Shown here piece by piece: positions 14,762-28,144 of a stretch of 48,271 nucleotides of DNA. The notes under the pieces are model-generated. The model had not been told where the DNA came from. It worked only from the letters and a program-made list of their open reading frames with translations, and searched no databases. Source of the DNA: Bryobacteraceae bacterium (GTDB taxonomy: Bacteria; Acidobacteriota; Terriglobia; Bryobacterales; Bryobacteraceae); the NCBI GenBank assembly GCA_035319685.1, contig DATHCE010000220.1, positions 1 to 48,271 on the forward strand. Reading direction: 5' to 3'. A program made the translations under genes and the position numbers. Numbering within the stretch: position 1 is the first letter of the stretch; each line of letters opens with the position of its first letter.

Positions 14762-15877
14762 TCAGCGCAAGGAGTACGTCAAGCCGAGCGTGAACTGGAA
14801 CGAGTTCTTCTTGAATCCCGGAGGCGGGTCGTTGAGGAACGCGTCGGTCGCGTTCAGGCTCACGCCCAGGCGCTTGTAGGTCGGCAACGTCAACCCCGCG
14901 CTGGCGATCGCCGAATACGCATTCGTATTGTTCCACGCCGGCGTCACCGACAGCTTCTGGTTGAACGCGATGCCGTGCACCAGCTTGCGCAGATAGGCTT
15001 CGGCGAACGTCGAGCCGATCAGGCTCTTATTGGCGCTCGATTTTGCGAACTGCTGATCGATGTAACTCATGCTGGCCTTCAGATCGAGGGTCTGATTGGC
15101 GTCTTTGATCGCCGTCCAGCCGATTCCGCCGCCGTAGCGCTGCTGCAAATCCAGGCCTTGCGAAAAATTATGATCGAAATCGGCCTGTCCGAAGCCGTAA
15201 ACGCGAGGAGAGAAATATTCATCGCGCTCGGCGGCGGCGTGATAGATCGAGGTCTTGAGCGTCGGGCTGCCGGGTTGCGAGACGGTGCCGTAGGATTCGG
15301 TGAAATCCACCAGGGTGCGGTTGCGCGCATCCAGCCAGTTTTCCGTAGGGATCGCGCGGACCAGACTGATGCCGGCGGTGAACGTCTCGCTATCCTGCGT
15401 GGCCTCCACCAGGCTCGCGCCGGCGGTAACCGTGCCGGACCAATCCTCAAAGAAACCCGGACTATGCATCACCGCCTTCTGGAACGCATCCGCGCTTACG
15501 ATGTTGCTCACATTCGCGACCGGGATCGATTGCGGCGGCGTGGCGCCCACTTCAATTTTCTGATCCGCCACGGTAATGGTTCCCTGCGGAACCGGCGCTT
15601 CATTTTTATGAACGATTTTGACGCCCTTCGGAATGACGGCGAATTTCTGGGAGGCGTGAAGTTCCCTGATATTTTTCCAATCGACTTTAATTTCGCCGAT
15701 CATGTCGCTCTTGAAGGTGATCTGGCCGCCGGCCGCGCTCACCAGATGGCCCACCAGCTTGTCGCCATTGGTGAAGATCAAAACATCCGGATCGGGTTTC
15801 GGCGCCTGCGCGTACATCACGCCCGCCGCGAAAAAAATTGCGAGACAGCCACTGGAAGATCTCTGAAACATGTTCAT
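14762..15877 (-). CDS. DUF481-family outer-membrane protein
   Basis: Signal peptide followed by an N-terminal soluble domain. The segment ..EDWSGTVTAGASLVEATQDSETFTAG.. and alternating beta-strand pattern ending ..FTLGLTYSLR are typical of the DUF481 (YdiY-like) family. Confidence 0.7.
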   Translation of the reverse strand: MNMFQRSSSGCLAIFFAAGVMYAQAPKPDPDVLIFTNGDKLVGHLVSAAGGQITFKSDMIGEIKVDWKNIRELHASQKFAVIPKGVKIVHKNEAPVPQGTITVADQKIEVGATPPQSIPVANVSNIVSADAFQKAVMHSPGFFEDWSGTVTAGASLVEATQDSETFTAGISLVRAIPTENWLDARNRTLVDFTESYGTVSQPGSPTLKTSIYHAAAERDEYFSPRVYGFGQADFDHNFSQGLDLQQRYGGGIGWTAIKDANQTLDLKASMSYIDQQFAKSSANKSLIGSTFAEAYLRKLVHGIAFNQKLSVTPAWNNTNAYSAIASAGLTLPTYKRLGVSLNATDAFLNDPPPGFKKNSFQFTLGLTYSLR

Positions 15878-15883
15878 TTCATT

Positions 15884-17011
15884 CTAACGAAGCAACCGGC
15901 AGCACTCGCGCGCGATTTCCCATTCTTCCTCGGCGTGGATCACCAGAATGCGCGGGTGCAGAAACTCGAACCTGGCTGCGACGATATCGCGCAAGGGCGC
16001 GCAATTTTCCCCGATACCCCCGGTGAACACGATTGCGTCCAGAGCACTCTCATGCGCGTCCGCGAGCGATCCAAGCATCGCGCCAATCTCGCGGCACAAA
16101 CGATGCGCGTAAATCTCGAAGGCGAGGCGCGCGCGTTGGTTTCCCTGTTCCATCGCTTCGAGAACGCGGCGCATATCGCCCGAAACGCCGGAGATCCCCA
16201 GCAGGCCCGATTCGCGGTTGAGAATTTCGTCAAGCTGCTCCGCGGTATACCCGCGATGCCGCAGCAGATAAATGATGATCGCCGGATCGATCGATCCGCT
16301 GCGGGCGCCCATCATGAGACCTTCGAGCGGCGTGAATCCCATGGTGGTGTCGACGCTTTTTCCATCGCGCACCGCGGCGAGCGACGCGCCGTTGCCGAGA
16401 TGGCAGGTGATGAGACGCAGATGCTTGCCCGGAATTTGCGCGCCCGGAATTTGCGCGGCCGGAATTTGGGCGCCCAGAATTTCCGCGGCGCGGCGCGAGG
16501 CGTATTGATGGCTGATGCCGTGAAACCCGTAGCGCCGGATACCGTGATCGAGCCATTCATAAGGACCGGGATAAACGTAGGCGGCGGGCGCGAGCGTCGC
16601 ATGAAAAGCCGAATCGAACACCGCGACTTGCGTGGCGTTGAAAATGCGCCCGGCGGTTTCAATCGCGGCCAGCTCGAATCGATTGTGCGCGGGGGCGACC
16701 TCCGCTGCCGCCGCGATCGCCGCGCGAACTTCGTCCGTCAGAATCGTGCTCTGGCGATATTTCGCGCCGCCGTGGACGATGCGATGGCCCACGGCGTCCA
16801 CCTTTCCGGGAACCGATCGGAGCAGCGGCGAAAGAATTTCGGGAATCGGGCGGCTATCGGTATCGACCTGCGCTTCCCACAACGGCTTCGGCGGATCAGA
16901 GGGCGGATCATTGGCCATCTCGGGGGCCATCTCGGGGGCCATCTCGGGGGAAATTTCATCGAGCCGGCATTTGAAAGTGCTGGAGCCTCCGTTCAGAACC
17001 AGAATTCTCAT
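15884..17011 (-). CDS. ackA: acetate kinase
   Basis: [40 protein letters not shown] and [11 protein letters not shown] 17011 forms an ATGA overlap with the phosphoketolase stop. The track ORF starts 9 nt further upstream, at 17020. Confidence 0.9.
16428..16487 (-). repeat. in-frame 15-bp x4 tandem repeat inside ackA ([20 protein letters not shown])
   Basis: Plus strand reads cccggaatttgcgcg cccggaatttgcgcg gccggaatttgggcg cccagaatttccgcg. Confidence 0.9.
16913..16948 (-). repeat. perfect in-frame 12-bp x3 tandem repeat inside ackA ([12 protein letters not shown])
   Basis: Plus strand reads ggccatctcggg three times. Confidence 0.95.
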
Positions 17012-19380
17012 GACGGCCATTTCCAGTCGCGGATTTCGGGCAGGTCGTCGCCATGCTCGGCGATGTACAGCTTGTGCTCGATCAGCTTATCGCGCAGCAG
17101 TTGCTTGAAATGTGCGCCGATGGGCTGCAAGCGCGGAACGCGGTCGATCACGTCGATGGCAAGATGGAAGCGATCGAGATCGTTGCGCACGGTCATATCG
17201 AACGGAGTGGTGGTCGTTCCTTCTTCCTTGTATCCGCGGACGTGCAGATTGTCGTGATTGGTGCGGCGATAGGTGAGCCGGTGAATCAGCCACGGGTAGC
17301 CGTGGAACGCGAACACGATCGGCTTGTTGGTGGTGAAAATCGAATCGAAATCATGATCGGCGAGGCCGTGCGGATGCTCGCTCGGCGGCTGAAGCGTCAT
17401 CAGATCGACGACGTTGACCGCTCGAATCCGGATGCCCGGCACATGCCGGCGCAGCAGATCGATTGCGCCCAGCGTTTCGAGCGTCGGAATGTCGCCGCAG
17501 CACGCCATAACGACGTCCGGCTCGCCCGCGTCATCGTTGCTCGCCCACTCCCAGATGCCGATTCCGGCGGTGCAGTGCTTGATCGCCGAATCCATGTCGA
17601 GATATTGCAGCGCGGGCTGCTTTCCCGCGACGATCACGTTCACATAATTGCGGCTGCGCAGGCAGTGGTCCGCGACCGAGAGCAGAGAGTTCGCATCCGG
17701 CGGCAGATAGACGCGCACGATCCCGGCTTTCTTGTTGACCACGATGTCGAGAAATCCCGGGTCCTGGTGGCTGAATCCGTTGTGATCCTGCCGCCACACG
17801 TGCGAGCTGAGCAGATAATTGAGCGACGCGATGGGCCTGCGCCAACCCACCGTAAGCGATTCCTTCAACCACTTGGCGTGTTGATTGAACATCGAATCGA
17901 CGATGTGAATAAAGGCCTCATAGCAGTTGAACAGGCCGTGCCGTCCGGTCAGCAGATAGCCTTCGAGCCAACCTTCGCAAAGATGTTCGCTCAACACTTC
18001 CATGACGCGGCCGTCGGGCGAGAGATGATCGTCGCCGGGAATGATCTGCGCCATCCAGTCGCGATCGGTCGCCTCGAACAGCGCGTTCAGCCGATTCGAG
18101 TTGGTCTCGTCCGGTCCCATCACGCGGAAATTTCGCGATTCCAGGTTCTCTTTCATGACGTCGCGCAGAAACTCGCCGAGCACGCGCGTGGCTTCGCCCA
18201 CGGTGGTTCCAGGCTTCGCCACGCCGACCGCGTATTTGCGGAAATCCGGCAGATGAAGGTCCTTGAGCAGCAGGCCGCCGTTGGCGTGCGGATTCGCGCC
18301 CATGCGCCGTGCGCCCTTGGGAGCCAGCTCGCGCAACTCCGGAATCAGGCTCCCGCCATCGTCAAACAATTCGTCGGCGCGATAGCTTTTCATCCATTCT
18401 TCGAGCAGTCTCAGGTGCTCCGGATTCGTGCGAACCTGATCGAGCGGAACCTGGTGAGCGCGCCATGTGCCTTCCACTGGTACGCCGTCGACGGTCTTCG
18501 GGCCGGTCCATCCCTTCGGCGAGACGAGCGCGATCATGGGCCAATGGGGCCGTTTCTCAACGCCGTGTTCGCGCGCGTCCTTTTGAATCGCGCGAATTTC
18601 GTTGACGACGTTTTCAAGCGTCTCTGCCATCGCCTGATGCATCGGCGCCGGGTCGCGGCCTTCGACGAAATGCGGCTCGTAGCCGACGCCGCGCAGAAAA
18701 TCGATCAATTCGTCCCGCCCGATCCGCGCGAGAATGGTGGGATTCGCGATCTTGTAGCCGTTTAGATGCAGAATCGGAATCACGGCGCCGTCGTGAACCG
18801 GATTGAGAAATTTGTTGGAATGCCAGCTCGCCGCCAACGGTCCGGTTTCGGCTTCGCCATCGCCGATCACGCAAATCGCCAGCAGATCGGGGTTGTCGAA
18901 CACCGCGCCGTGCGCGTGCAGCAGCGAATAACCGAGTTCGCCGCCTTCATGAATCGAGCCCGGAGTTTGCGCCGCCGCGTGGCTCGGGATGCCGCCGGGG
19001 AAGGAAAACTGCTTGAACAGGCGCTTCATCCCCTCGGCGTCTTCGGTGATGTTCGGGAACAGCTCGGAATACGAACCTTCCAGATACGTGTTGGCGACCA
19101 TCCCCGGGCCGCCGTGCCCCGGTCCGCAGATGTAAATCATGTCGAGGTCGTATTTCTTGATCAGCCGGTTCGCATGCGCGTAGATAAAATTCAAACCCGG
19201 CGTCGTTCCCCAATGGCCCAGCAAACGCGGCTTGATATCGTCGACCCGCAGCGGCCGTATCAGCAGAGGATTGTCATAAAGGTAAATCTGCCCGACCGAG
19301 AGATAATTCGCGGCGCGCCAATACGCGTCGATTTTACGAAGTTCGTCGTCAGCAAGTGGCACAGTCCCTTGGTACCACAC
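17008..19380 (-). CDS. xfp: xylulose-5-phosphate/fructose-6-phosphate phosphoketolase
   Basis: 790 aa. N-terminus ..[18 protein letters not shown].., [10 protein letters not shown] and GPGHGGP. The overall length and motifs match the XFP family. GTG start at 19380. Confidence 0.95.
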
Positions 19381-19418
19381 TCGTATGGCAGCGAGATTAA
19401 CCGATGCATACTAGAGAA

Positions 19419-19874
19419 ATGCGCATCGTGCTCGGTTCTGATCATGCCGGATTCGAAATGAAGCAGGATCTGGTTTCCTTCGTCCGGAAACTGGGTCATG
19501 AGGTTTTGGATGTGGGCACGGACAGCACCGCGCCGGTGGACTACCCGGATTACGCCGAAGCGGTGGGCCAGGCGATGCGGTCGCAGCAAGCCGAGCGCGG
19601 CATTCTGATCTGCGGCAGCGGCGTCGGCGCGTCCATCGCCGCGAACAAGCTCCCCGGAGTGCGCGCCGGGTTGTGCCACGACTGCTACTCGGCGCATCAA
19701 GGCGTGGAGCACGACGCGATGAATGTTCTGGTGCTGGGATCGCGCATTATCGCCGCGGAACTGGCGCACGATCTGGTGCAGCGTTTTCTGAGCGCGCAAT
19801 TCACGCACGAAGAGCGACATGTCCGGCGTCTCGCCAAAGTCGACAAACTGGAACAGCGCTTCCAGTGCAAGTAG
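19419..19874 (+). CDS. rpiB: ribose-5-phosphate isomerase B (RpiB/LacA/LacB family)
   Basis: [15 protein letters not shown].., [16 protein letters not shown] and NVLVLGSR. Divergent from xfp. Confidence 0.9.
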
Positions 19875-20139: not shown

Positions 20140-20199
20140 GGGTGACGCGCGCCTTTGGATTGCAGCGTGCGCTGGGGGTCCCGGGGAGTTGACTCTAAC

Positions 20200-22332
20200 A
20201 TGCGGATCCCATTTTTACATTCGGCAGGACTTCGGCGTTTTGCGATGCTCAGTGTGGTCGCGGGCGCCGCCATCTTGAGCAGTGCGCCTCGTGCGACGTT
20301 TCCCAAAACAGACAAGGCGCATTATAAGGACCAAGCGACGCTTGATTTCGTGCTTCCAGGCTTAGTGGTCACCATTAATTCTGCTTCTATTGCCAGTAAC
20401 GGTACCATCCAAACTAACTTCACACTCACAGACCCTTCAGGACTCGTGCTGGATCGGCTAGGGGTCAATACACCCGGAGCGGTTTCCGTCAGCTTTGTGA
20501 TTGGCGCGATTCCACAAGGCGCGGCGAAGGTTGGTTCCGGCCAATACATCAGCTATATCACCCATCAGGTGACGGCAACCGCCGGAGCGGCTTGCCCCGC
20601 CTCGATTTGCGTGGGAGGTACTGCTACGCAGCCGACCAGCGATTCCGGCGGAACCTATGTGGCGAACGCCGATGGCAGCTACACGTACACCTTCGGCAAT
20701 AAGGCACCGACGGGATTCGATCCGACGATCACAACGACCATCGGCATTTATGCGTCCCGCAACCTTTCCGCCTTTGGTCTGGCGACCTATTATGGAGATG
20801 CCCTCTTCAACTTCGTGCCGAACGGATCCAAGGTGACCGTGGTGCGCGATGTGGTGGACACCACCGCCTGCAATCAGTGCCACGATCCTCTGGCCCTGCA
20901 CGGCGGATCGCGCCAGCTCACCGGGCTGTGCATCATCTGTCACCAGCCGCAGAATACGGACCCGAATACCGGCAACCTGCTGGACTTTAAGGTCATGATC
21001 CACAAGCTCCACGACGGAGCGTATCTGCCCAGTGTAGTGGCCGGCGGGAAGTATGAGATTATCGGCTACATGAATTCGATCAGCGATTTTTCGACGATCG
21101 TTTTCCCGGACGATGTTACCAACCAGACCACGACTCCGAACGGCGTCCGCGATTGCGCCAAGTGCCACACTTCGGCCGCTTCGCAGTCCGGGCAGTACAT
21201 GACGAACCCCACGCGCGTGGCGTGCGGCTCCTGTCACGACGACGTAAATTTCGCCACCGGCGTGAATCACCCGGGCGGCCCGCAGTTTGACGACAACGAG
21301 TGCTCCACCTGCCACATTCCGAAAGGCGAGATGGAGTTCGACGCGTCGATCGCGGGCGCGCACACCATTCCGACGCTTTCGACACAGTTGCCCGGCACGA
21401 CGTTCGCGCTGCAGAAGGTGACCAATGGCGTGGCGGGTAAATCGCCGACGGTGACCTTCCTGTTGACCAACAAAGCCGGTGCCGCGATACCCCCGAGCTC
21501 AATGGCCAGCCTGTCGCTGGTGATCACAGGCCCGACGACGGACTATCCTTCGTCCACAAGCGAAAGCGCAACCGGCGCGACCTGCTCAGCGTCCGGCGTC
21601 TGCACGTACACGTTCAAGTACGTGATCCCGTCGACGGCGACCGGCACGTACACCATCGGTATCGAGGGCTACGCGAACATCACTCTCGATGCGGGCACGA
21701 CCATCGCGCAAACGGTTCGCGATGACGGCCTGAACCAGGTCATCAATTTCTCGGTGGATGGTTCGCCGGTGACGCCGCGGCGCACCGTGGTCGAGCTGGC
21801 AAATTGCAACGTGTGCCACAACAATCTGGCGCTGCATGGCGGCCTTCGCAACAACGTGACCTACTGCCCGGTGTGCCACAATCCGAACGGGACCGACTCC
21901 TCGGAGCGGCCGGTAACGGCGGGACCGGCGCAGGGAATCAACTTCGCGCTGCTGGTCCATAAGATCCACACCGGAACCAATCTGACCCAGAACTTTACCG
22001 TATATGGGTACATGGGCTCGGTCAACAATTTCAACGGCGTCCTGTTCCCCGGCAACCTGGCGAATTGCGACAAGTGCCATGCGACCGGCTCGAACGAGCT
22101 GCCGATCGCCGCTGTGTTGCCGGTAGTGAATCCGCAGGGATTCATCAGTCCGGCCGGACCGACCACGTCGGCATGCACGGCGTGTCATGATCCGGAGGCG
22201 ACTTCTTCTCACGCTCTGGCCAACACCACAATTCTCGGCGAATCGTGCGTGGTTTGCCATGGGCCGGACGCGCAGTTCTCAGTAGATTCGGTGCATACGA
22301 TCGAGATTCCGGCAGCCAGTCCGAACCAGTAA
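20200..22332 (+). CDS. mtrC: outer decaheme c-type cytochrome, MtrC/OmcA-like
   Basis: Ten CXXCH motifs fall in two blocks of five. Block one is CNQCH, CIICH, CAKCH, CGSCH, CSTCH. Block two is CNVCH, CPVCH, CDKCH, CTACH, CVVCH. Each block is preceded by a heme-free ~200-aa segment. A signal peptide is present, but there is no lipobox Cys. Confidence 0.8.
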   Translation: MRIPFLHSAGLRRFAMLSVVAGAAILSSAPRATFPKTDKAHYKDQATLDFVLPGLVVTINSASIASNGTIQTNFTLTDPSGLVLDRLGVNTPGAVSVSFVIGAIPQGAAKVGSGQYISYITHQVTATAGAACPASICVGGTATQPTSDSGGTYVANADGSYTYTFGNKAPTGFDPTITTTIGIYASRNLSAFGLATYYGDALFNFVPNGSKVTVVRDVVDTTACNQCHDPLALHGGSRQLTGLCIICHQPQNTDPNTGNLLDFKVMIHKLHDGAYLPSVVAGGKYEIIGYMNSISDFSTIVFPDDVTNQTTTPNGVRDCAKCHTSAASQSGQYMTNPTRVACGSCHDDVNFATGVNHPGGPQFDDNECSTCHIPKGEMEFDASIAGAHTIPTLSTQLPGTTFALQKVTNGVAGKSPTVTFLLTNKAGAAIPPSSMASLSLVITGPTTDYPSSTSESATGATCSASGVCTYTFKYVIPSTATGTYTIGIEGYANITLDAGTTIAQTVRDDGLNQVINFSVDGSPVTPRRTVVELANCNVCHNNLALHGGLRNNVTYCPVCHNPNGTDSSERPVTAGPAQGINFALLVHKIHTGTNLTQNFTVYGYMGSVNNFNGVLFPGNLANCDKCHATGSNELPIAAVLPVVNPQGFISPAGPTTSACTACHDPEATSSHALANTTILGESCVVCHGPDAQFSVDSVHTIEIPAASPNQ

Positions 22333-22361
22333 TGGCGAGTGACCGACCACGGAGGAAAACA

Positions 22362-23318
22362 ATGGAACGGCCGCTATGTTCGTTCACGATCCGATACGGC
22401 GTAGCGGCCGTATTTTTCGCCCTGCGGCTCGCGGGACAAGCGCCGGCAACCGAGCCGGCCAAGCAGGAAGCCGCGAAAGCCGAAACGAGACCCCCGGCGA
22501 CCTACGCAGGAACAGAAGCCTGTCTGGTGTGCCACGAAGAGGTGGGCGGGAAGTTCGCAACCAATCCGCACCACGTTCTTGAAACGCAGAAGGGCGGACC
22601 CTGGGCGGGAAAAACCTGTGAGGCGTGCCATGGGCCGGGCAGCCGGCACGCAGAGTCGGTTGATCCCAAGGATATTCGCGATCCCGTGAGGCTTGCGTCC
22701 GCGGAATCCGAGCGCGTTTGTCTCACATGTCATCTCAATACCCGCGTGCATGGAGGGCATATCGAGAGCAGCCACACCAAGAATCAGGTAGTGTGCGTGA
22801 GCTGCCACACGATGCACGAGACGCCGGAACAACTGGTGCCGCGAACGGCCGACGGGATCAACGCCAAGTGCGCGGGCTGTCACGTGTCGGTGTGGGCCAG
22901 TTTTCAAAGGCCGTATCGTCATAAGCTGCCCGAAGGCGCGATGAGCTGCGTCGACTGTCACGACCCGCACGGGCGTCCCGTGACCACGCAGGCCCGCTCG
23001 GTGATCGGCAATCAGGCCGGTTGCTATGAGTGCCATGGCGATAAGCGCGGACCGTTCATCTTCGAGCACGAACCGCTGCGCACCGACGGGTGCACGGCGT
23101 GCCACATGCCGCATGGATCGGCAAATCCGCGAATGCTGACGCGCGCGAACATCGAGACGGTGTGTCTTGAATGTCACGCCAACATCAGCAGCCCGAAACC
23201 GGCGCTGGGTGGAGTGCCTCCGGCGTTTCACGATCTGCGCAGTCCGGTGTATCAGAACTGCTCGGTGTGCCACGTGAAGGTCCACGGATCGAACGTAGAC
23301 AGGACGTTTCTACGATGA
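22362..23318 (+). CDS. mtrA: periplasmic decaheme c-type cytochrome, MtrA/DmsE family-like
   Basis: 318 aa with a signal peptide and ten CXXCH motifs (CLVCH, CEACH, CLTCH, CVSCH, CAGCH, CVDCH, CYECH, CTACH, CLECH, CSVCH). GGAGGA lies 5 nt upstream of ATG 22362. The alternative ATG 22332 overlaps the mtrC-like stop (TAATG). Confidence 0.85.
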   Translation: MERPLCSFTIRYGVAAVFFALRLAGQAPATEPAKQEAAKAETRPPATYAGTEACLVCHEEVGGKFATNPHHVLETQKGGPWAGKTCEACHGPGSRHAESVDPKDIRDPVRLASAESERVCLTCHLNTRVHGGHIESSHTKNQVVCVSCHTMHETPEQLVPRTADGINAKCAGCHVSVWASFQRPYRHKLPEGAMSCVDCHDPHGRPVTTQARSVIGNQAGCYECHGDKRGPFIFEHEPLRTDGCTACHMPHGSANPRMLTRANIETVCLECHANISSPKPALGGVPPAFHDLRSPVYQNCSVCHVKVHGSNVDRTFLR

Positions 23319-25399
23319 GACGCCTCACATTTTTAGCGCTCTGTTTGAGCCTCGCGGGATGGGCGGCTGACGATCTGCAGCAGACCGCGGCATCGGCGGA
23401 TCCATCGGCGAATCAGGCCGCTTCATCCACTGCGCCTCCGGCCCAGGCGCCCGCGCAAAGCACAACTCAGGCTGCGCCTCCCGCGCAAGCTCCGCCGCAA
23501 AGTCCAACCCAGGCCGCGCCTCCGCCCCCGCAAGCGCCCGCGGGATCCGAATCGATCACCGGCAGCATCGACCTGGGTTATCGATTCGTGACCGGTATCG
23601 GCGGCAGCAATCTGGCGTATCGCAGCATTGTCGATCTCGGCGAGGGTCCGCGATTGCTGGGTTTGAACGCGACCATCCAGGATCCCACCAAGCGCTTCTT
23701 CGACCGGCTGACTGTCAGCGGAATCGGCTGGGGCGGCGACCCCTATACCACGGCGCACGTGGATGCGTCCAAGCAGCGCTGGTACCGTTTCACGTTCGAT
23801 TACCGCAGCATCGCGTATTTCGACGCGCTGCCGTCCTTCGCGAATCCCTTCGCGGGAAACGGAATCCTGCTCGATCAACAATCCTTCGACATCCGGAAAC
23901 GAATGGCGAATTTCGCGCTGGAGCTGCGGCCCGCGTCGCACGTGATTCCCTATCTTCAGTACTCGCGGGATTCCGATCACGGAACCGGCGTCACCGATTT
24001 TGTTTCGAGCGAGATCGCGACGTTTCCGGTCGCGAATCTCACTAGCGAGCACACCGACAATTATCGCGGCGGCGTCCGCTTCGAGTTTCCGAAGTTCCAC
24101 GCGACGCTCGAAGAGGGCGCGACGGTCTTCCAGGACAACGAACAGGTTACCTATAGCGGCCAGAACCCCGGAAACTTTCCCGCGCCGTTCTTCGGCGAGA
24201 CGCTCGATTTGACCAAACTGCTGGAAGCCTACGGGATTCGGGGGACCAATCCTTACTCGCGCGTGATGCTGACGGCGACGCCCTGGAGCTGGCTCGATCT
24301 GTACGGCCAATTTTCCTACAGCATGGGCCAGACCAACGTGAATTACACGCAGGCGAACAACGGCGAGTTCGTCGATCTGAGCTCGCTGCTGTTCTATATG
24401 AGCGAACAGGATCTTTTGACGGGTGCGGCGAAGCAGCCGCATACTTCGGGCACGGTCGGACTCGAGATGCGCCCGCTCAAACACATCCGGCTGGTCGAGA
24501 GCTGGACCACGGATCGCCTGCACACAGCATCATCCTCCGACCTGGCGCAGGCGCTTGTGGCGGCTTCGGGCGCCATCACGGAGCCGCCCTCGCTTTCCAC
24601 ATTCCGGCTGGTGGACAACTACAGCCAGCAGTCCTTCGACATTTTCTACGACGTGACGTCGAAGCTCACGCTCCACGGCGGTGAGCGCTACACCTACGGC
24701 GACACCACGGTGCCTCCGTTTTATGGAACGGGGTTTGAAACGGGCTCGCTCAGCCGGCAAGCCGGCGTGGCCGGCGCGAACCTGCATCTGAACCAGAAAA
24801 TCAGCGCGAATTTCGATTTTGAAGGCGGCAATTCGAATTCGGTGTATTATCTAACCAGCCTTCAGGATTACCGGAAATATCGCGCGCGGGTGCGCTATCA
24901 GCCCATCCAATCGCTCTCGATCACCTGGAACCTGAATTTCCTCAACAACGATAATCCGATTCCGGGCGTGAATTACCGTTTCTCGAGCAAAGACGACGGA
25001 GTCTCGCTGCTGTGGACCGCCGGCAAGCGCTTCAGCATTCTGGGAGACTACGCGCGGACGACCATCTACTCGGATATTCTGTACGTCGCTCCGCCGCTCA
25101 ACACCAGCACCCAATCGATTTATTGGGAGGACGCGCATCAAGCCAGCGCGCTGCTGGATTTCAATCTGCTGCAGATCGGCAAGCGGACGCTGCACCTTTC
25201 GGCCGGGGGTTCGCTGTTTACAGGACACGGAACCCGTCCGACGCGTTTTTATCAACCGATGGCGAAGCTGGTTTTCCCACTCGCCAATCATATCGACTGG
25301 ACGACGCAGTGGAGCTGGTACGGATTCAATGAGCCGATCTACCAGTTCGAAGGCTTTCGAACCACGGTCGTCACCACCGGCCTGCGCTTTACGCGATAG
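23315..25399 (+). CDS. mtrB: decaheme-associated outer-membrane beta-barrel, MtrB/PioB family-like
   Basis: 694 aa with signal peptide MRRLTFLALCLSLAGWA and no heme motif. It shows abundant alternating aromatic beta-strand patterns (YRFTFDYRSIAYF, YRGGVRFEF, RARVRYQP..). ATGA overlap with the mtrA-like stop. Size and position match MtrB. Confidence 0.7.
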   Translation: MRRLTFLALCLSLAGWAADDLQQTAASADPSANQAASSTAPPAQAPAQSTTQAAPPAQAPPQSPTQAAPPPPQAPAGSESITGSIDLGYRFVTGIGGSNLAYRSIVDLGEGPRLLGLNATIQDPTKRFFDRLTVSGIGWGGDPYTTAHVDASKQRWYRFTFDYRSIAYFDALPSFANPFAGNGILLDQQSFDIRKRMANFALELRPASHVIPYLQYSRDSDHGTGVTDFVSSEIATFPVANLTSEHTDNYRGGVRFEFPKFHATLEEGATVFQDNEQVTYSGQNPGNFPAPFFGETLDLTKLLEAYGIRGTNPYSRVMLTATPWSWLDLYGQFSYSMGQTNVNYTQANNGEFVDLSSLLFYMSEQDLLTGAAKQPHTSGTVGLEMRPLKHIRLVESWTTDRLHTASSSDLAQALVAASGAITEPPSLSTFRLVDNYSQQSFDIFYDVTSKLTLHGGERYTYGDTTVPPFYGTGFETGSLSRQAGVAGANLHLNQKISANFDFEGGNSNSVYYLTSLQDYRKYRARVRYQPIQSLSITWNLNFLNNDNPIPGVNYRFSSKDDGVSLLWTAGKRFSILGDYARTTIYSDILYVAPPLNTSTQSIYWEDAHQASALLDFNLLQIGKRTLHLSAGGSLFTGHGTRPTRFYQPMAKLVFPLANHIDWTTQWSWYGFNEPIYQFEGFRTTVVTTGLRFTR
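23432..23545 (+). repeat. in-frame ~42-bp repeats encoding a Pro/Ala/Gln-rich linker at the mtrB-like N-terminus
   Basis: APPAQAPAQSTTQA / APPAQAPPQSPTQA / APPPPQAPAGS, directly after the signal peptide. Confidence 0.7.
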
Positions 25400-25408
25400 C
25401 CCAACTAT

Positions 25409-26437
25409 ATGAACTTCGAAAACAGCCCTCTATTGGTGATTTGGGAAGTAACTCAAGCCTGCGATCAGCGGTGCGCCAACTGCCGGTCGACGGTCCATTC
25501 CGAGCGCGACCCGCTCGAACTGACGACGGAGGAAGGATTCCACCTGCTCGAGCAGGTGCGCTCCTTCGGCAACCCGCTCATGGTTTTTACGGGCGGAGAT
25601 TTGCTGAAGCGTCCCGACATTTATGAACTGATCGGGAAGAGCGTGGGCGTCGGCTTGCGCACTAACGTGACGCCCAGCGCCACCCAAAGGATGACCGACA
25701 GTGCGATCGACCGGTTCCAGGAGTGCGGCGTCTCCCGGATGGCCATCGGCCTGGACGGGCCGGACGCGGAAACGCACGACGGAATCCGCGAATGGCCCGG
25801 AGGCTATGATCGCGCCATGGCTGCGCTCCGGCGCGCGCAGAGGATCGGCCTGGAGACCCAGGTCCAGACCGTCGTCACCCAGCGCAATCGCCAGATGCTT
25901 CCCCAAATCGCGGAGCGCGTGTTCGAGGTCGGGGCGAAGCTGTGGAGCGCCTTTTTTTCGGTCTCGGGCGGCCATGACGAGGATCTCACCGGGGAGGAGT
26001 ACGAGAGGGTCTTCGAGACCCTGTTCGCTTTGTCGCGCCTGGCGCCCTTCGATATCCGCACCACCGAAGGCACGCATTACCGGCGCTACGTCGCCCAGCG
26101 CCTGAAAGCCGAACACATGCGGCGCGCGCACTGGCGGACCGCGCCGGTCGGCGACGGCAAGGGATTCGTGTTCGTCTCTCATACCGGCGAGATTTTCCCG
26201 AGCGGTTTTTTGCCCGTTTCCGGCGGCAACGTGCGCGAGCAGTCCATTGTCGAGGTGTATCGCAACCACGAGCTGTTCAAGCTGCTTCGGGATCCGCACA
26301 GGCACGAAGGCAAGTGCGGGCGGTGCGAATATCACCGCATCTGCGGAGGCTCGCGAGCGCGGGCTTACGCGCTCACCGGGAATTACCTGGCGGAAGATCC
26401 GCGCTGCATTTATCAGCCTGTGGCGAAAACCTCCTGA
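25409..26437 (+). CDS. radical SAM/SPASM domain protein (TIGR04053-like, function unknown)
   Basis: The CX3CX2C motif lies in VIWEVTQACDQRCANCRS, followed by FTGGDLLKRPD. The C-terminal Cys-rich segment GKCGRCEYHRICGGSRARAY..DPRCIY is SPASM-like. The gene starts 9 nt after the mtrB-like stop. Confidence 0.85.
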   Translation: MNFENSPLLVIWEVTQACDQRCANCRSTVHSERDPLELTTEEGFHLLEQVRSFGNPLMVFTGGDLLKRPDIYELIGKSVGVGLRTNVTPSATQRMTDSAIDRFQECGVSRMAIGLDGPDAETHDGIREWPGGYDRAMAALRRAQRIGLETQVQTVVTQRNRQMLPQIAERVFEVGAKLWSAFFSVSGGHDEDLTGEEYERVFETLFALSRLAPFDIRTTEGTHYRRYVAQRLKAEHMRRAHWRTAPVGDGKGFVFVSHTGEIFPSGFLPVSGGNVREQSIVEVYRNHELFKLLRDPHRHEGKCGRCEYHRICGGSRARAYALTGNYLAEDPRCIYQPVAKTS

Positions 26438-26509: not shown

Positions 26510-26560
26510 GTTTACTGTAAATCCGTGTTTGCTGTAAATCTTTGTTTACTGTAAATCTTT
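26510..26560. repeat. 17-bp x3 tandem repeat spanning the stop codon of the S10 peptidase gene
   Basis: gtttactgtaaatccgt gtttgctgtaaatcttt gtttactgtaaatcttt. The third unit encodes the last four codons plus the stop (KDLQ*) on the minus strand. Confidence 0.9.
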
Positions 26561-28144
26561 CGGAATGGCGCCGGACATGAATTCGCCCACGTCGTGCTTC
26601 AGCTTTGTGTGCGAATCGCTGTCGATGTACAGCATGTGGCCGGCCTGGTAGAAATCCCAGGTGATCTGCTTGTGCATCTCGGGACCCAGGCCCATGTGCT
26701 TGAAAGTGTACTCGACGGCATAATACGGCGTCGCGAGATCGAAGTACCCGGCGGCGATCATCAGCTTCATATAAGGATTCTTGGTGAATGCGTTGCGGAG
26801 CAGGGCGGTGGTGTCGCCGAAACCGTTCTGCGCCTGATAATCCCAGGGCTGAATCCCGCCGGAGGGATAGTAAAACATGTCGGTTTTGTATCCCAGCTCG
26901 TCGCGAATGTAGCTCAGGAACATCGCGGTGAACGGCGGCGTGATCTGGGTGCTCGACGGATCATAGCCGCCGGCTTCGGTAAGTGGCGCGGGACCCGCCA
27001 GGCGCCCGTCATACCGGCCGATGACTTCATGCTCGTTGTGCATCAGCTCGCGCGTAAAATGCTGCACGTCCCAGCGCAGGTTGTTTTCGTCGAGATATTT
27101 GGCGTCGAGGCCGGTGTATCGCACCAGCTTGTCGATCACGGCCTTGCGCTGCGCGGGGGAAAGATCATCGCCCTGATTCAGCGCGGCGGCGTAATCCCCG
27201 AGCGCGAAGCCTTGCACTTCGTTGAGGAACGATTTCAGATCCTTCTTCTGCAAATCCGCCGCGACCTTTTTGTGATACCAGGCGTCGGCCGCATAGGTGG
27301 GCATCTCCAGCTCGTAGACCAGATCGTCGCTGCGGCTCCAGATGGTTTCGAGATTGAGGGTCGTGCCGATCAGGATCACGCCGTTGAAGGCCATGCCGCG
27401 ATCGATCAGGTAACCGGCGAGTCCGGCGGCGCGGAACGTCCCGTAGCTTTCGCCGGCGATGAACAGCGGCGATTTTTCGCGGTCGCTGCGCGTCACGTAC
27501 ATGCGCATGAACTCGCCGACGGATTGAATATCTCCGGAAACGCTATTCATGCGGCGCGCGATCGCCACGGTTCTCGCGCGGCTGTAGCCGGTGCCCACCG
27601 GATCGATGAACACGAGATCGGTCAGGTCGAGCCAGGTGTCCTGATTGTCTTTCAATCGATACGGCGGAGGCGGCATGCCGCCGTTCGGCATCAACATGGG
27701 ACTCCGCGGACCCATGCCTCCGATGTGCACCCACATCGACGCCGAACCGGGACCGCCGTTGAAGCAGAATGTGAGGGGCCGTTTCGACGGATCGGCGCCG
27801 TCGAGCGTGTAGGCCATGTAAAAGATGTGCGCCTCGGTCTGGCCGGAGGAATCCCGGAGCGGCATCTGCGCGAGGGTCGCGGTGTAGTTGAGGGTCTTGC
27901 CGTTGACGGTGATGGAGTGATGCGTCACCACCGGGGTTTCGTCGATGTCGCCGCCGATCGCGGGGCCGGGACCGGGAATGCCGCCGCGTCCGCCGCGTCC
28001 TCCGGGAGCCTCGGGTTCGGGCGCGGGCGCGGGCGCGGGAGGCTGCTGCGCTGCGGGAGCCTGGGCCGCCGCGCCTCGACCCTGCGTCGGAGCCTGTTGG
28101 GCCAGCATGAAAGCAGGGATCGCAAGCCAGAGAAATGCCCTCAT
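26546..28144 (-). CDS. S10-family serine carboxypeptidase-like peptidase
   Basis: Signal peptide, FNGGPGSAS, and the nucleophile context AGESYGTF. Confidence 0.8.
   Translation of the reverse strand: MRAFLWLAIPAFMLAQQAPTQGRGAAAQAPAAQQPPAPAPAPEPEAPGGRGGRGGIPGPGPAIGGDIDETPVVTHHSITVNGKTLNYTATLAQMPLRDSSGQTEAHIFYMAYTLDGADPSKRPLTFCFNGGPGSASMWVHIGGMGPRSPMLMPNGGMPPPPYRLKDNQDTWLDLTDLVFIDPVGTGYSRARTVAIARRMNSVSGDIQSVGEFMRMYVTRSDREKSPLFIAGESYGTFRAAGLAGYLIDRGMAFNGVILIGTTLNLETIWSRSDDLVYELEMPTYAADAWYHKKVAADLQKKDLKSFLNEVQGFALGDYAAALNQGDDLSPAQRKAVIDKLVRYTGLDAKYLDENNLRWDVQHFTRELMHNEHEVIGRYDGRLAGPAPLTEAGGYDPSSTQITPPFTAMFLSYIRDELGYKTDMFYYPSGGIQPWDYQAQNGFGDTTALLRNAFTKNPYMKLMIAAGYFDLATPYYAVEYTFKHMGLGPEMHKQITWDFYQAGHMLYIDSDSHTKLKHDVGEFMSGAIPKDLQ

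Follow-up and report, generated by a model that had tools for sequence, protein, structure and literature searches.

A TIGR04053-family radical SAM enzyme behind mtrCAB in an acidobacterial lineage: an AhbD-like candidate for anaerobic heme b supply

Introduction

Why does a gene for a cytoplasmic radical S-adenosylmethionine (SAM) enzyme stand directly behind the genes of an outer-membrane electron conduit? This question is raised by a stretch of 48,271 nucleotides (nt) from a Bryobacteraceae bacterium (contig DATHCE010000220.1 of assembly GCA_035319685.1; the whole stretch is called the window in the following), in which the gene in question follows an mtrCAB cluster on the same strand. An earlier note, made from the sequence alone, had proposed the enzyme as a fourth component of the conduit, with heme or cytochrome modification or the maturation of a peptide or protein cofactor as possible roles, and had suggested a survey of gene neighbourhoods. 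As described below, the gene encodes an ordinary radical SAM enzyme from a widespread, uncharacterised family whose nearest characterised relative is AhbD, and this enzyme is neither a structural part of the conduit nor conserved with it in general. Judged from sequence, it might well be an AhbD-like, oxygen-independent coproheme decarboxylase of the kind with only the AuxII cluster, probably co-transcribed here with mtrCAB and coupling anaerobic heme b supply to a complex of 20 hemes; we prefer this reading tentatively and consider its chances to be slightly less than even.

Family assignment and conserved motifs

The open reading frame (ORF) at 25409-26437 on the plus strand encodes a predicted cytoplasmic protein of 342 amino acids (aa), which was characterised by hidden Markov models (HMMs), Pfam, the ratio of nonsynonymous to synonymous substitution rates (dN/dS) and an AlphaFold2 (AF2) model. 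The curated NCBIfam model TIGR04053, which has a cut-off of 395 bits, is matched with 407.2 bits by residues 1-337 over its full length (model positions 1-366 of 366), as the resemblance to this family noticed earlier had suggested. The second-best model is that of AhbD, TIGR04545, with 299.8 bits (residues 9-337 against positions 1-339 of 339), followed by NirJ2 (192 bits), NirJ (137 bits) and AhbC (128 bits), all of them below their equivalog cut-offs of 500-650 bits; the suspected likeness to AhbD and NirJ thus holds, with AhbD as the nearest named model. A Pfam scan of the protein returned Radical_SAM only and no SPASM family. All relatives tested behave alike, scoring above the TIGR04053 cut-off with AhbD as next best, and the lowest scores come from the relatives in the clade of the window (398-400 bits, or 398-407 bits including the window), compared to 425-474 bits for the other members. 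TIGR04053 is a separate, unnamed curated family, large (718 clusters at 50% identity, E <= 1e-30) and widespread in Bacillaceae, and many homologs carry the Joint Genome Institute (JGI) label 'AdoMet-dependent heme synthase'. Sequence identity is 96% to the closest match (P0001), 61-85% to the listed acidobacterial members and 39% to P0275, the relatives of which are mostly from Bacillaceae. In some Bryobacterales a second TIGR04053 paralog of 370-380 aa with an N-terminal extension of about 25 aa is encoded 2-9 kb upstream of the main copy (L034:6901-8043, which scores 463 bits, L037:4086-5198, L056:3010-4122 and L067:1210-2106), showing that the family comprises at least two subtypes in this order.

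The assignment is supported by the cysteine motifs. The radical SAM [4Fe-4S] motif C18-X3-C22-X2-C25 (CDQRCANC) is encoded at 25460-25483 and the AuxII cluster ligands C303-X2-C306-X5-C312-X20-C333 at 26315-26407, both on the plus strand. Across 60 homologs, C22, C25, C303, C306, C312 and C333 do not vary, and C18 is retained in at least 90%; E220, S257 and S315 are likewise invariant, and S265 is nearly so. It was shown that CX3CX2C and a C-terminal CX2CX5CX20-38C motif are conserved in all AhbDs and that in AuxII-only AhbDs Glu, Ser and Ser replace the AuxI cysteines (Fix et al., PMC10452713). Both motifs are found in the protein, with S315 at the position of the CX2C cysteine of full-SPASM AhbDs; E220 and S265 would lie near the other AuxI positions, as deduced from spacing arithmetic and not from an alignment to the sequences of Fix et al. 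The sequence elements quoted in the earlier note were all recovered in the ORF (VIWEVTQACDQRCANC, ELTTEEGF, FTGGDLLKRPD, CGRCEYHRICGG, DPRCIY), and C18, C22 and C25 confirm the radical SAM motif that it had reported within ACDQRCANC. Its description of the C-terminus as SPASM-like was right in that a conserved cysteine cluster is present; however, a full SPASM domain has 7-8 cysteines (CX9-15GX4C ... CX2CX5CX3C ... C), whereas the four AuxII ligands found here make up only half of such a domain.

The AF2 model (mean predicted local distance difference test score, pLDDT, of 84) adopts a SPASM/twitch-class fold, and a Foldseek search returned SuiB, PqqE, BlsE, SkfB, CteB and anSME with template modelling (TM) scores of 0.61-0.75; such a match of a predicted model confirms the class of the enzyme and does not discriminate between substrates. 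A sequence search of the PDB returned no AhbD structure; its best match, BlsE, was confined to the radical SAM core. Neither a signal peptide nor an N-terminal extension is present in the protein, the radical SAM motif beginning at residue 18.

Two functions known from related radical SAM enzymes can be weighed on this basis. The first is the maturation of a ribosomally synthesized and post-translationally modified peptide (RiPP) or of a peptide cofactor, as performed by PqqE, MftC, SuiB or sactisynthases. SuiB, PqqE, SkfB, CteB and anSME are the best structural matches, and RiPP-type models are matched weakly, with 95-106 bits against cut-offs of 265-625 bits (PqqE 106 against 381, MftC 99 against 265, StsB 95 against 625 bits). 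However, the position of the radical SAM motif at residue 18 means that there is no N-terminal RiPP recognition element (RRE) domain, the AuxI site on which many of these enzymes rely is missing, and no PqqD-like, peptidase or transporter partner was found among the annotated recurrent neighbours of the gene or in four Bacillaceae loci, ORFs below 70 aa not being examined. A RiPP maturase is extremely improbable on these grounds, and the maturation of a peptide or protein cofactor considered earlier is unlikely, given the missing RRE domain, the lack of an identified precursor gene and the variable neighbours. The second is lipid cross-linking by a Gms-like glycerol monoalkyl glycerol tetraether (GMGT) synthase. 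Gms and AhbD share 36% identity, and the bacterial Gms homologs in peat metagenomes are predominantly acidobacterial (PMC11214058). The defining features of Gms enzymes, however, are an N-terminal COG4001 domain of about 100 aa, a minimum of 400 aa and a gene clustered with tes or mss (PMC11214058), whereas the protein here has 342 aa and no extension, and no tes or mss gene lies nearby in the window; we regard this function as just as improbable as that of a RiPP maturase.

Distribution of the gene and its association with mtrCAB

The gene neighbourhoods were surveyed in both directions. The forward survey, one scan of species-representative genomes, gave 80 loci from 80 assemblies, nearly all Bryobacterales, with proteins of 61-84% identity and, at this level of identity, one copy per genome. 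In two of the 80 loci mtrCAB lies directly upstream, namely in L007, which is a close relative, and in L008; in L017 it lies 3.6 kb away, with a tetraheme cytochrome, a Crp/Fnr regulator and MurJ in between, and the other 77 orthologs are located away from mtrCAB. Neighbour-joining groups the window, L007, L003 and L008 in one clade and places L017 elsewhere. In the other loci no partner is conserved, a pattern that suggests a solitary housekeeping gene. The commonest neighbours are thymidylate kinase (tmk) and DNA polymerase III delta' (holB), which occur in 17-19 of 79 loci, and further recurrent ones are 5-enolpyruvylshikimate-3-phosphate (EPSP) synthase (aroA), pyruvate dehydrogenase E1 (aceE) and a polytopic Fer4_5 protein. 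In four Bacillaceae genomes the TIGR04053 gene is solitary and stands in varied contexts, where no riboswitch, conserved upstream motif, precursor peptide or transporter was found. In a few independent lineages (L017/L025, L039 and L069) c-type cytochrome genes occur at most 3 kb from the gene, which may leave a weak hint of an association. L039 and L008 seemed to be connected by a sigma-54 activator; this link was rejected, since it reflects a shared domain only and not orthology.

Two of these neighbourhoods deserve a description of their own. In L017 (6422-11071) and L025 (1-6329) the order on one strand is mtrCAB, tetraheme cytochrome, Crp/Fnr-family regulator, MurJ and TIGR04053 gene, L025 having one extra ORF between regulator and MurJ, and this lineage represents a second, looser association of the TIGR04053 gene with an mtr cluster. 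The Fer4_5 protein is polytopic and membrane-bound and, according to Pfam, combines Fer4_5 with 4Fe-4S dicluster domains. Its gene lies close to the TIGR04053 gene in 13 of 79 loci, which belong to several clades (e.g., L010:11118-12164 and L024:9425-10441), and in 11 of these 13 it is convergent and directly behind that gene; the protein could be an electron-accepting partner.

The reverse survey covered 80 metagenome loci with MtrB-like proteins of 41-76% identity, all in the order mtrC-mtrA-mtrB; the loci were not dereplicated, so that the fractions are rough. The only one with a radical SAM gene downstream is L087, a close relative whose MtrB is 76% identical, and none of 58 loci with at least 1.2 kb of downstream sequence shows anything AhbD-like, even at E 1e-3. 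Instead, 41 of these 58 have on the same strand, starting at most about 16 nt from the end of mtrB, an ORF of about 368 aa with four CXXCH motifs and matches to the Pfam families Cytochrom_C and Cytochrome_CBB3 (seen in L088-L166, e.g., L096:5332-6438, L106 and L115, and as L017:6422-7531). Such a tetraheme cytochrome c after mtrB was already reported for the Group 5 MtrCAB of Acidobacteriia (Baker et al., 2022, PMC8805035), and it was not found in the window, L001, L003 and L008. Four of five intermediate MtrB relatives (55-62% identity; L167, L168, L169 and the P0141 contig) have a bare mtrCAB that lacks both the tetraheme cytochrome and the radical SAM gene.

From the two surveys together it follows that the adjacency of radical SAM gene and mtrB is lineage-specific. 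The earlier statement that canonical mtrCAB clusters have no such gene is borne out, the usual fourth gene in this group being the tetraheme cytochrome (PMC8805035), whereas the proposal of a fourth conduit component is not supported as a general rule: the neighbourhood survey revealed essentially no enrichment beside multiheme cytochrome genes, with two adjacent cases and one at 3.6 kb among 80 orthologs and none among the 58 other mtrCAB loci or the four intermediates.

The lineage with the gene directly behind mtrB consists of the window, L001/L007, L003, L087 and L008, with junctions of 9 nt in the window, 23 nt in L001, 10 nt in L003, 10 nt in L087 and 103 nt in L008. Purifying selection acts on the radical SAM gene (dN/dS 0.10-0.12 against close relatives and 0.25 against L008) and is at least as strong as that on mtrB at the same synonymous divergence (dS). 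The flank on the 3' side of the gene is an S10 peptidase in the window and ScdA/hemerythrin in L001 and L003, and the gene stays with mtrB; the adjacency persists even in L008, whose MtrB shares only 55% identity with that of the window. The proteins of the clade have two short deletions and 10 changes at 159 otherwise conserved columns; the changes are mostly conservative and the catalytic residues are all intact.

L001 (11040-18325) and L003 (11219-18532) share a larger downstream block, in which genes for ScdA/hemerythrin, a coenzyme A (CoA)-ligase/GNAT fusion, a cytochrome b, a cytochrome with 11 CXXCH motifs and a NapC/NirT-type cytochrome come next after the radical SAM gene, all on the minus strand; behind them, a PAS kinase and a sigma-54 activator are encoded on the plus strand. 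This set is absent from the window, which has peptidases and an ABC/LolA-like set instead. L168 is syntenic with L003 further downstream, in the multiheme/PAS-kinase/sigma-54-activator block.

These observations bear on two other explanations. The same enzyme might stand behind mtrB by accident, a housekeeping TIGR04053 gene having been placed there by a local rearrangement or by insertion of mtrCAB with no benefit for the cell. The restriction of the adjacency to one gene-tree clade would fit to this, as would its lack in four of the five intermediate relatives, among them L168 with its synteny to L003, the reported mobility of mtrCAB (PMC8805035) and the generally highly variable context of the gene. 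However, a junction of 9-23 nt is kept in four relatives at dS values of 0.75-0.95 although the downstream flank has changed, the adjacency persists over the distance to L008, and cytochrome c genes lie near the gene in the independent lineages L017/L025, L039 and L069, so that we consider an accidental position to be a serious explanation, albeit an unlikely one. Alternatively, the enzyme might have specialised as a maturase that modifies heme or the MtrA and MtrC apoproteins for the conduit, as the term fourth component had implied. The operon-like placement and the sequences of the clade, which are the most divergent of the members tested, point in this direction, but the gene is missing from all 58 other acidobacterial mtrCAB loci and all four intermediates, 77 of 80 orthologs are away from mtrCAB, the clade-specific changes leave the catalytic motifs unaltered, and the protein lacks a signal peptide whereas heme attachment is periplasmic. 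A conduit-specific maturase is thus very improbable.

Junction with the mtrB-like gene and 3' flank

The TAG stop codon of the mtrB-like ORF lies at 25397-25399 and is separated from the ATG of the radical SAM ORF by the 9 nt cccaactat (25400-25408, plus strand), confirming the distance, strand and coordinates given before. The ORF has a GC content of 0.64, 0.46 and 0.80 at the first, second and third codon positions, which is of coding type at the third position. The window is chromosomal DNA with 61% GC, and its closest relatives place it in the Terriglobia/Bryobacterales of the Acidobacteriota. The gap leaves no room for a hairpin, and no terminator-like hairpin was found between the two genes, as the earlier note had stated. 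Scans of the window for sigma-70 promoters and intrinsic terminators gave counts at the level of chance with none at the junction, FNR-type and sigma-54-type sites were matched at or below chance with none upstream of mtrC, and Rfam and tRNA scans gave no matches. Taken from spacing alone, co-transcription of the radical SAM gene with mtrCAB is likely.

Downstream follows the gene for an S10 peptidase (26546-28144), which is encoded convergently on the minus strand, making the radical SAM ORF the last gene of the plus-strand block. The region 3' of its stop codon contains no terminator (fold z-score -0.13). Between the two genes, at the 3' end of the S10 peptidase ORF, positions 26510-26560 contain three tandem units of 17 nt, GTTTACTGTAAATC plus 3 nt, with the palindromic core TTTAC.GTAAA; three matches were found where 0.22 are expected by chance. 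The repeat region has no stable fold (z-score -0.13), and the repeats may constitute a candidate protein-binding array.

Proposed function

For the preferred reading as an anaerobic coproheme decarboxylase, the following mechanism is conceivable. Reductive cleavage of SAM would generate a 5'-deoxyadenosyl radical, which would remove hydrogen from both the ring A and the ring B propionate of Fe-coproporphyrin III; the electron would leave via AuxII, CO2 would be lost and the vinyl groups of heme b would be formed. ChdC, the usual last enzyme of the coproporphyrin-dependent pathway, requires peroxide or oxygen, so that under anoxia heme b would come from a cytoplasmic AhbD-like enzyme. Most Acidobacteria were reported to have ChdC and the coproporphyrin-dependent pathway (PMC10991733, PMC5095920), and AhbD-type genes found in facultative Gram-positive bacteria without other Ahb enzymes were proposed to be an anaerobic alternative to ChdC (PMC13564367). 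A heme-related role remains the best guess, as the earlier note had it in part; its alternative of an enzyme modifying cytochromes does not stand, since without a signal peptide the enzyme is not able to act on periplasmic holo-cytochromes.

The position of the gene at the end of mtrCAB would allow the anaerobic heme supply to be co-induced with a complex that binds 20 hemes. The stronger form of this idea, in which an AhbD-like heme b synthase was wired into the mtrCAB operon in the slot of the tetraheme cytochrome and heme synthesis is co-induced with the conduit, is doubtful, although quite possible; we infer the substrate, the co-transcription and the benefit of the linkage from sequence and gene order. 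In the literature, neither a radical SAM or heme-biosynthetic gene within an operon for extracellular electron transfer nor the combination of MtrCAB with a radical SAM enzyme was found, and the Mtr survey (PMC8805035) is silent on radical SAM.

Several points weigh against the preferred reading. The score against the AhbD model, 299.8 bits, lies below the equivalog cut-off of 500 bits, so that a different substrate is possible, and a literature search for TIGR04053 returned no publication using the term. Among the neighbour clusters that recur in the 80 acidobacterial loci and were annotated, none is related to heme (or to peptides), no heme-biosynthesis gene was found in the four Bacillaceae loci, and the window itself contains no heme-biosynthesis or ccm genes; the assignment of coproheme as substrate is provisional. 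The low TIGR04053 scores of the clade together with its 10 changes at 159 columns suggest that some functional drift is possible. With respect to co-transcription, the 9-nt junction has no obvious Shine-Dalgarno sequence, and an internal promoter in the 3' end of mtrB is possible.

The first of these points leads to a further alternative, i.e., a TIGR04053 enzyme that is not a heme b synthase and performs related radical chemistry on another tetrapyrrole or small molecule, comparable to AhbC, NirJ or BlsE. Next to the AhbD score, this would be in agreement with the separate curation of the unnamed family and with the two paralogs only a few kb apart in some genomes; moreover, the AhbD homolog Gms was shown to act on a quite different substrate (PMC11214058). 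However, no other named family comes near AhbD in score (300 bits compared to 192 for NirJ2 and 137 for NirJ), the C-terminal motif common to all AhbDs is retained, and the taxa carrying the gene, Bacillaceae and Acidobacteria, make coproheme without a known anaerobic decarboxylase. Another substrate is therefore distinctly unlikely in our view.

If the linkage is functional, it would mean that cofactor supply, and not just cytochromes, can be packaged with an electron conduit, which would bear on the transfer of Mtr systems to other hosts and on how iron-cycling potential is read from peat and soil metagenomes. Such a linkage would furthermore provide a handle on the unproven claim that TIGR04053 proteins are the anaerobic coproheme decarboxylase that the coproporphyrin-dependent pathway lacks; the operon context lends this claim circumstantial support and could serve as a test system.

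The mtrCAB block upstream

All three conduit genes lie on the plus strand. mtrC (20200-22332) encodes a decaheme cytochrome of the OmcA/MtrC family with 10 CXXCH motifs, assigned by TIGR03507 (501 bits, cut-off 209) and the Pfam domains Mtrc-MtrF_II-IV_dom; its start is probably the ATG at 20200, the mechanical ORF beginning at 20155. Shewanella MtrC is a lipoprotein. The MtrC of the window has a signal-like N-terminus (MRIPFLHSAGLRRFAMLSVVAGAAILSS), but no lipobox cysteine was found nearby (20200-20300). mtrA (22332-23318), starting with the ATG at 22332 or 22362, encodes a periplasmic decaheme cytochrome of the DmsE/MtrA family (TIGR03508, 235 bits, cut-off 192; 10 CXXCH).

The mtrB-like gene (23315-25399) starts with an ATG at 23315, has a 4-nt overlap with the mtrA stop and encodes an outer-membrane beta-barrel porin of 694 aa with the signal peptide MRRLTFLALCLSLAGWAADD. 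The porin itself has no Pfam or NCBIfam match. The designation mtrB-like, which was already used in the earlier note, is justified by its homologs, 10 of 41 of which match the Pfam family MtrB_PioB (PF11854), and by the AF2 model (pLDDT 72), whose top match in the PDB is 6r2q_B, the MtrB of the solved Shewanella Mtr complex (E 1.7e-14, TM 0.62/0.66), followed by TonB-dependent receptors seven orders of magnitude worse at about 1e-7. Between signal peptide and barrel (23375-23560) the porin contains an Ala/Pro/Gln-rich low-complexity linker of about 55 residues, which differs in length among relatives and has a pLDDT below 50 in the model. Directly upstream of mtrC, at 14762-19874, genes for a DUF481 protein, acetate kinase, phosphoketolase (XFP) and RpiB are located, a block that is syntenic in L001 and L003.

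Comparison with known systems

Among characterised enzymes, the AuxII-only subgroup of AhbD from non-methanogenic archaea (PMC10452713) is the closest. The protein shares with it the match over the full model, both cysteine motifs (CX3CX2C and CX2CX5CX20-38C) and a length of about 340 aa, as well as the lack of the AuxI cysteines, with S315 at the CX2C position, an invariant E220 and a near-invariant S265. It differs in its score (300 bits against a cut-off of 500) and in its context, as no ahbA, ahbB or ahbC was found nearby in the 48-kb window. Moreover, AhbD belongs to the siroheme-dependent pathway, whereas the host here is presumably coproporphyrin-dependent. With the remaining TIGR04053 proteins of Bacillaceae and Bryobacterales, which correspond to the 'AhbD' of coproporphyrin-pathway organisms in heme reviews, the protein shares the match to the curated model above its cut-off. 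Elsewhere, the gene is solitary and occurs in varied contexts, while here it stands at the 3' end of an mtrCAB operon, and the clade of the window is set apart by its two small deletions and by the lowest scores of the members tested.

Gms (PMC11214058) shares the AhbD-related radical SAM group and the occurrence in peat Acidobacteria, from which the protein is distinguished by the lack of the N-terminal lipid-binding COG4001 domain, a length below 400 aa and the absence of a tes or mss neighbour. The RiPP-maturing SPASM enzymes PqqE, MftC, SuiB, CteB and SkfB are characterised by an RRE domain or a PqqD-like partner and by an adjacent precursor peptide; the protein has no N-terminal domain, and no PqqD-like partner was found among the annotated neighbours (ORFs below 70 aa not examined). 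Finally, the Group 5 mtrCAB of Acidobacteriia/Bryobacterales (PMC8805035) resembles the conduit of the window in the gene order mtrC-mtrA-mtrB, in MtrB proteins of 41-50% identity and in a fourth gene that follows mtrB on the same strand after about 10-16 nt; this fourth slot is occupied by a periplasmic tetraheme cytochrome there and by a cytoplasmic radical SAM enzyme in the lineage of the window.

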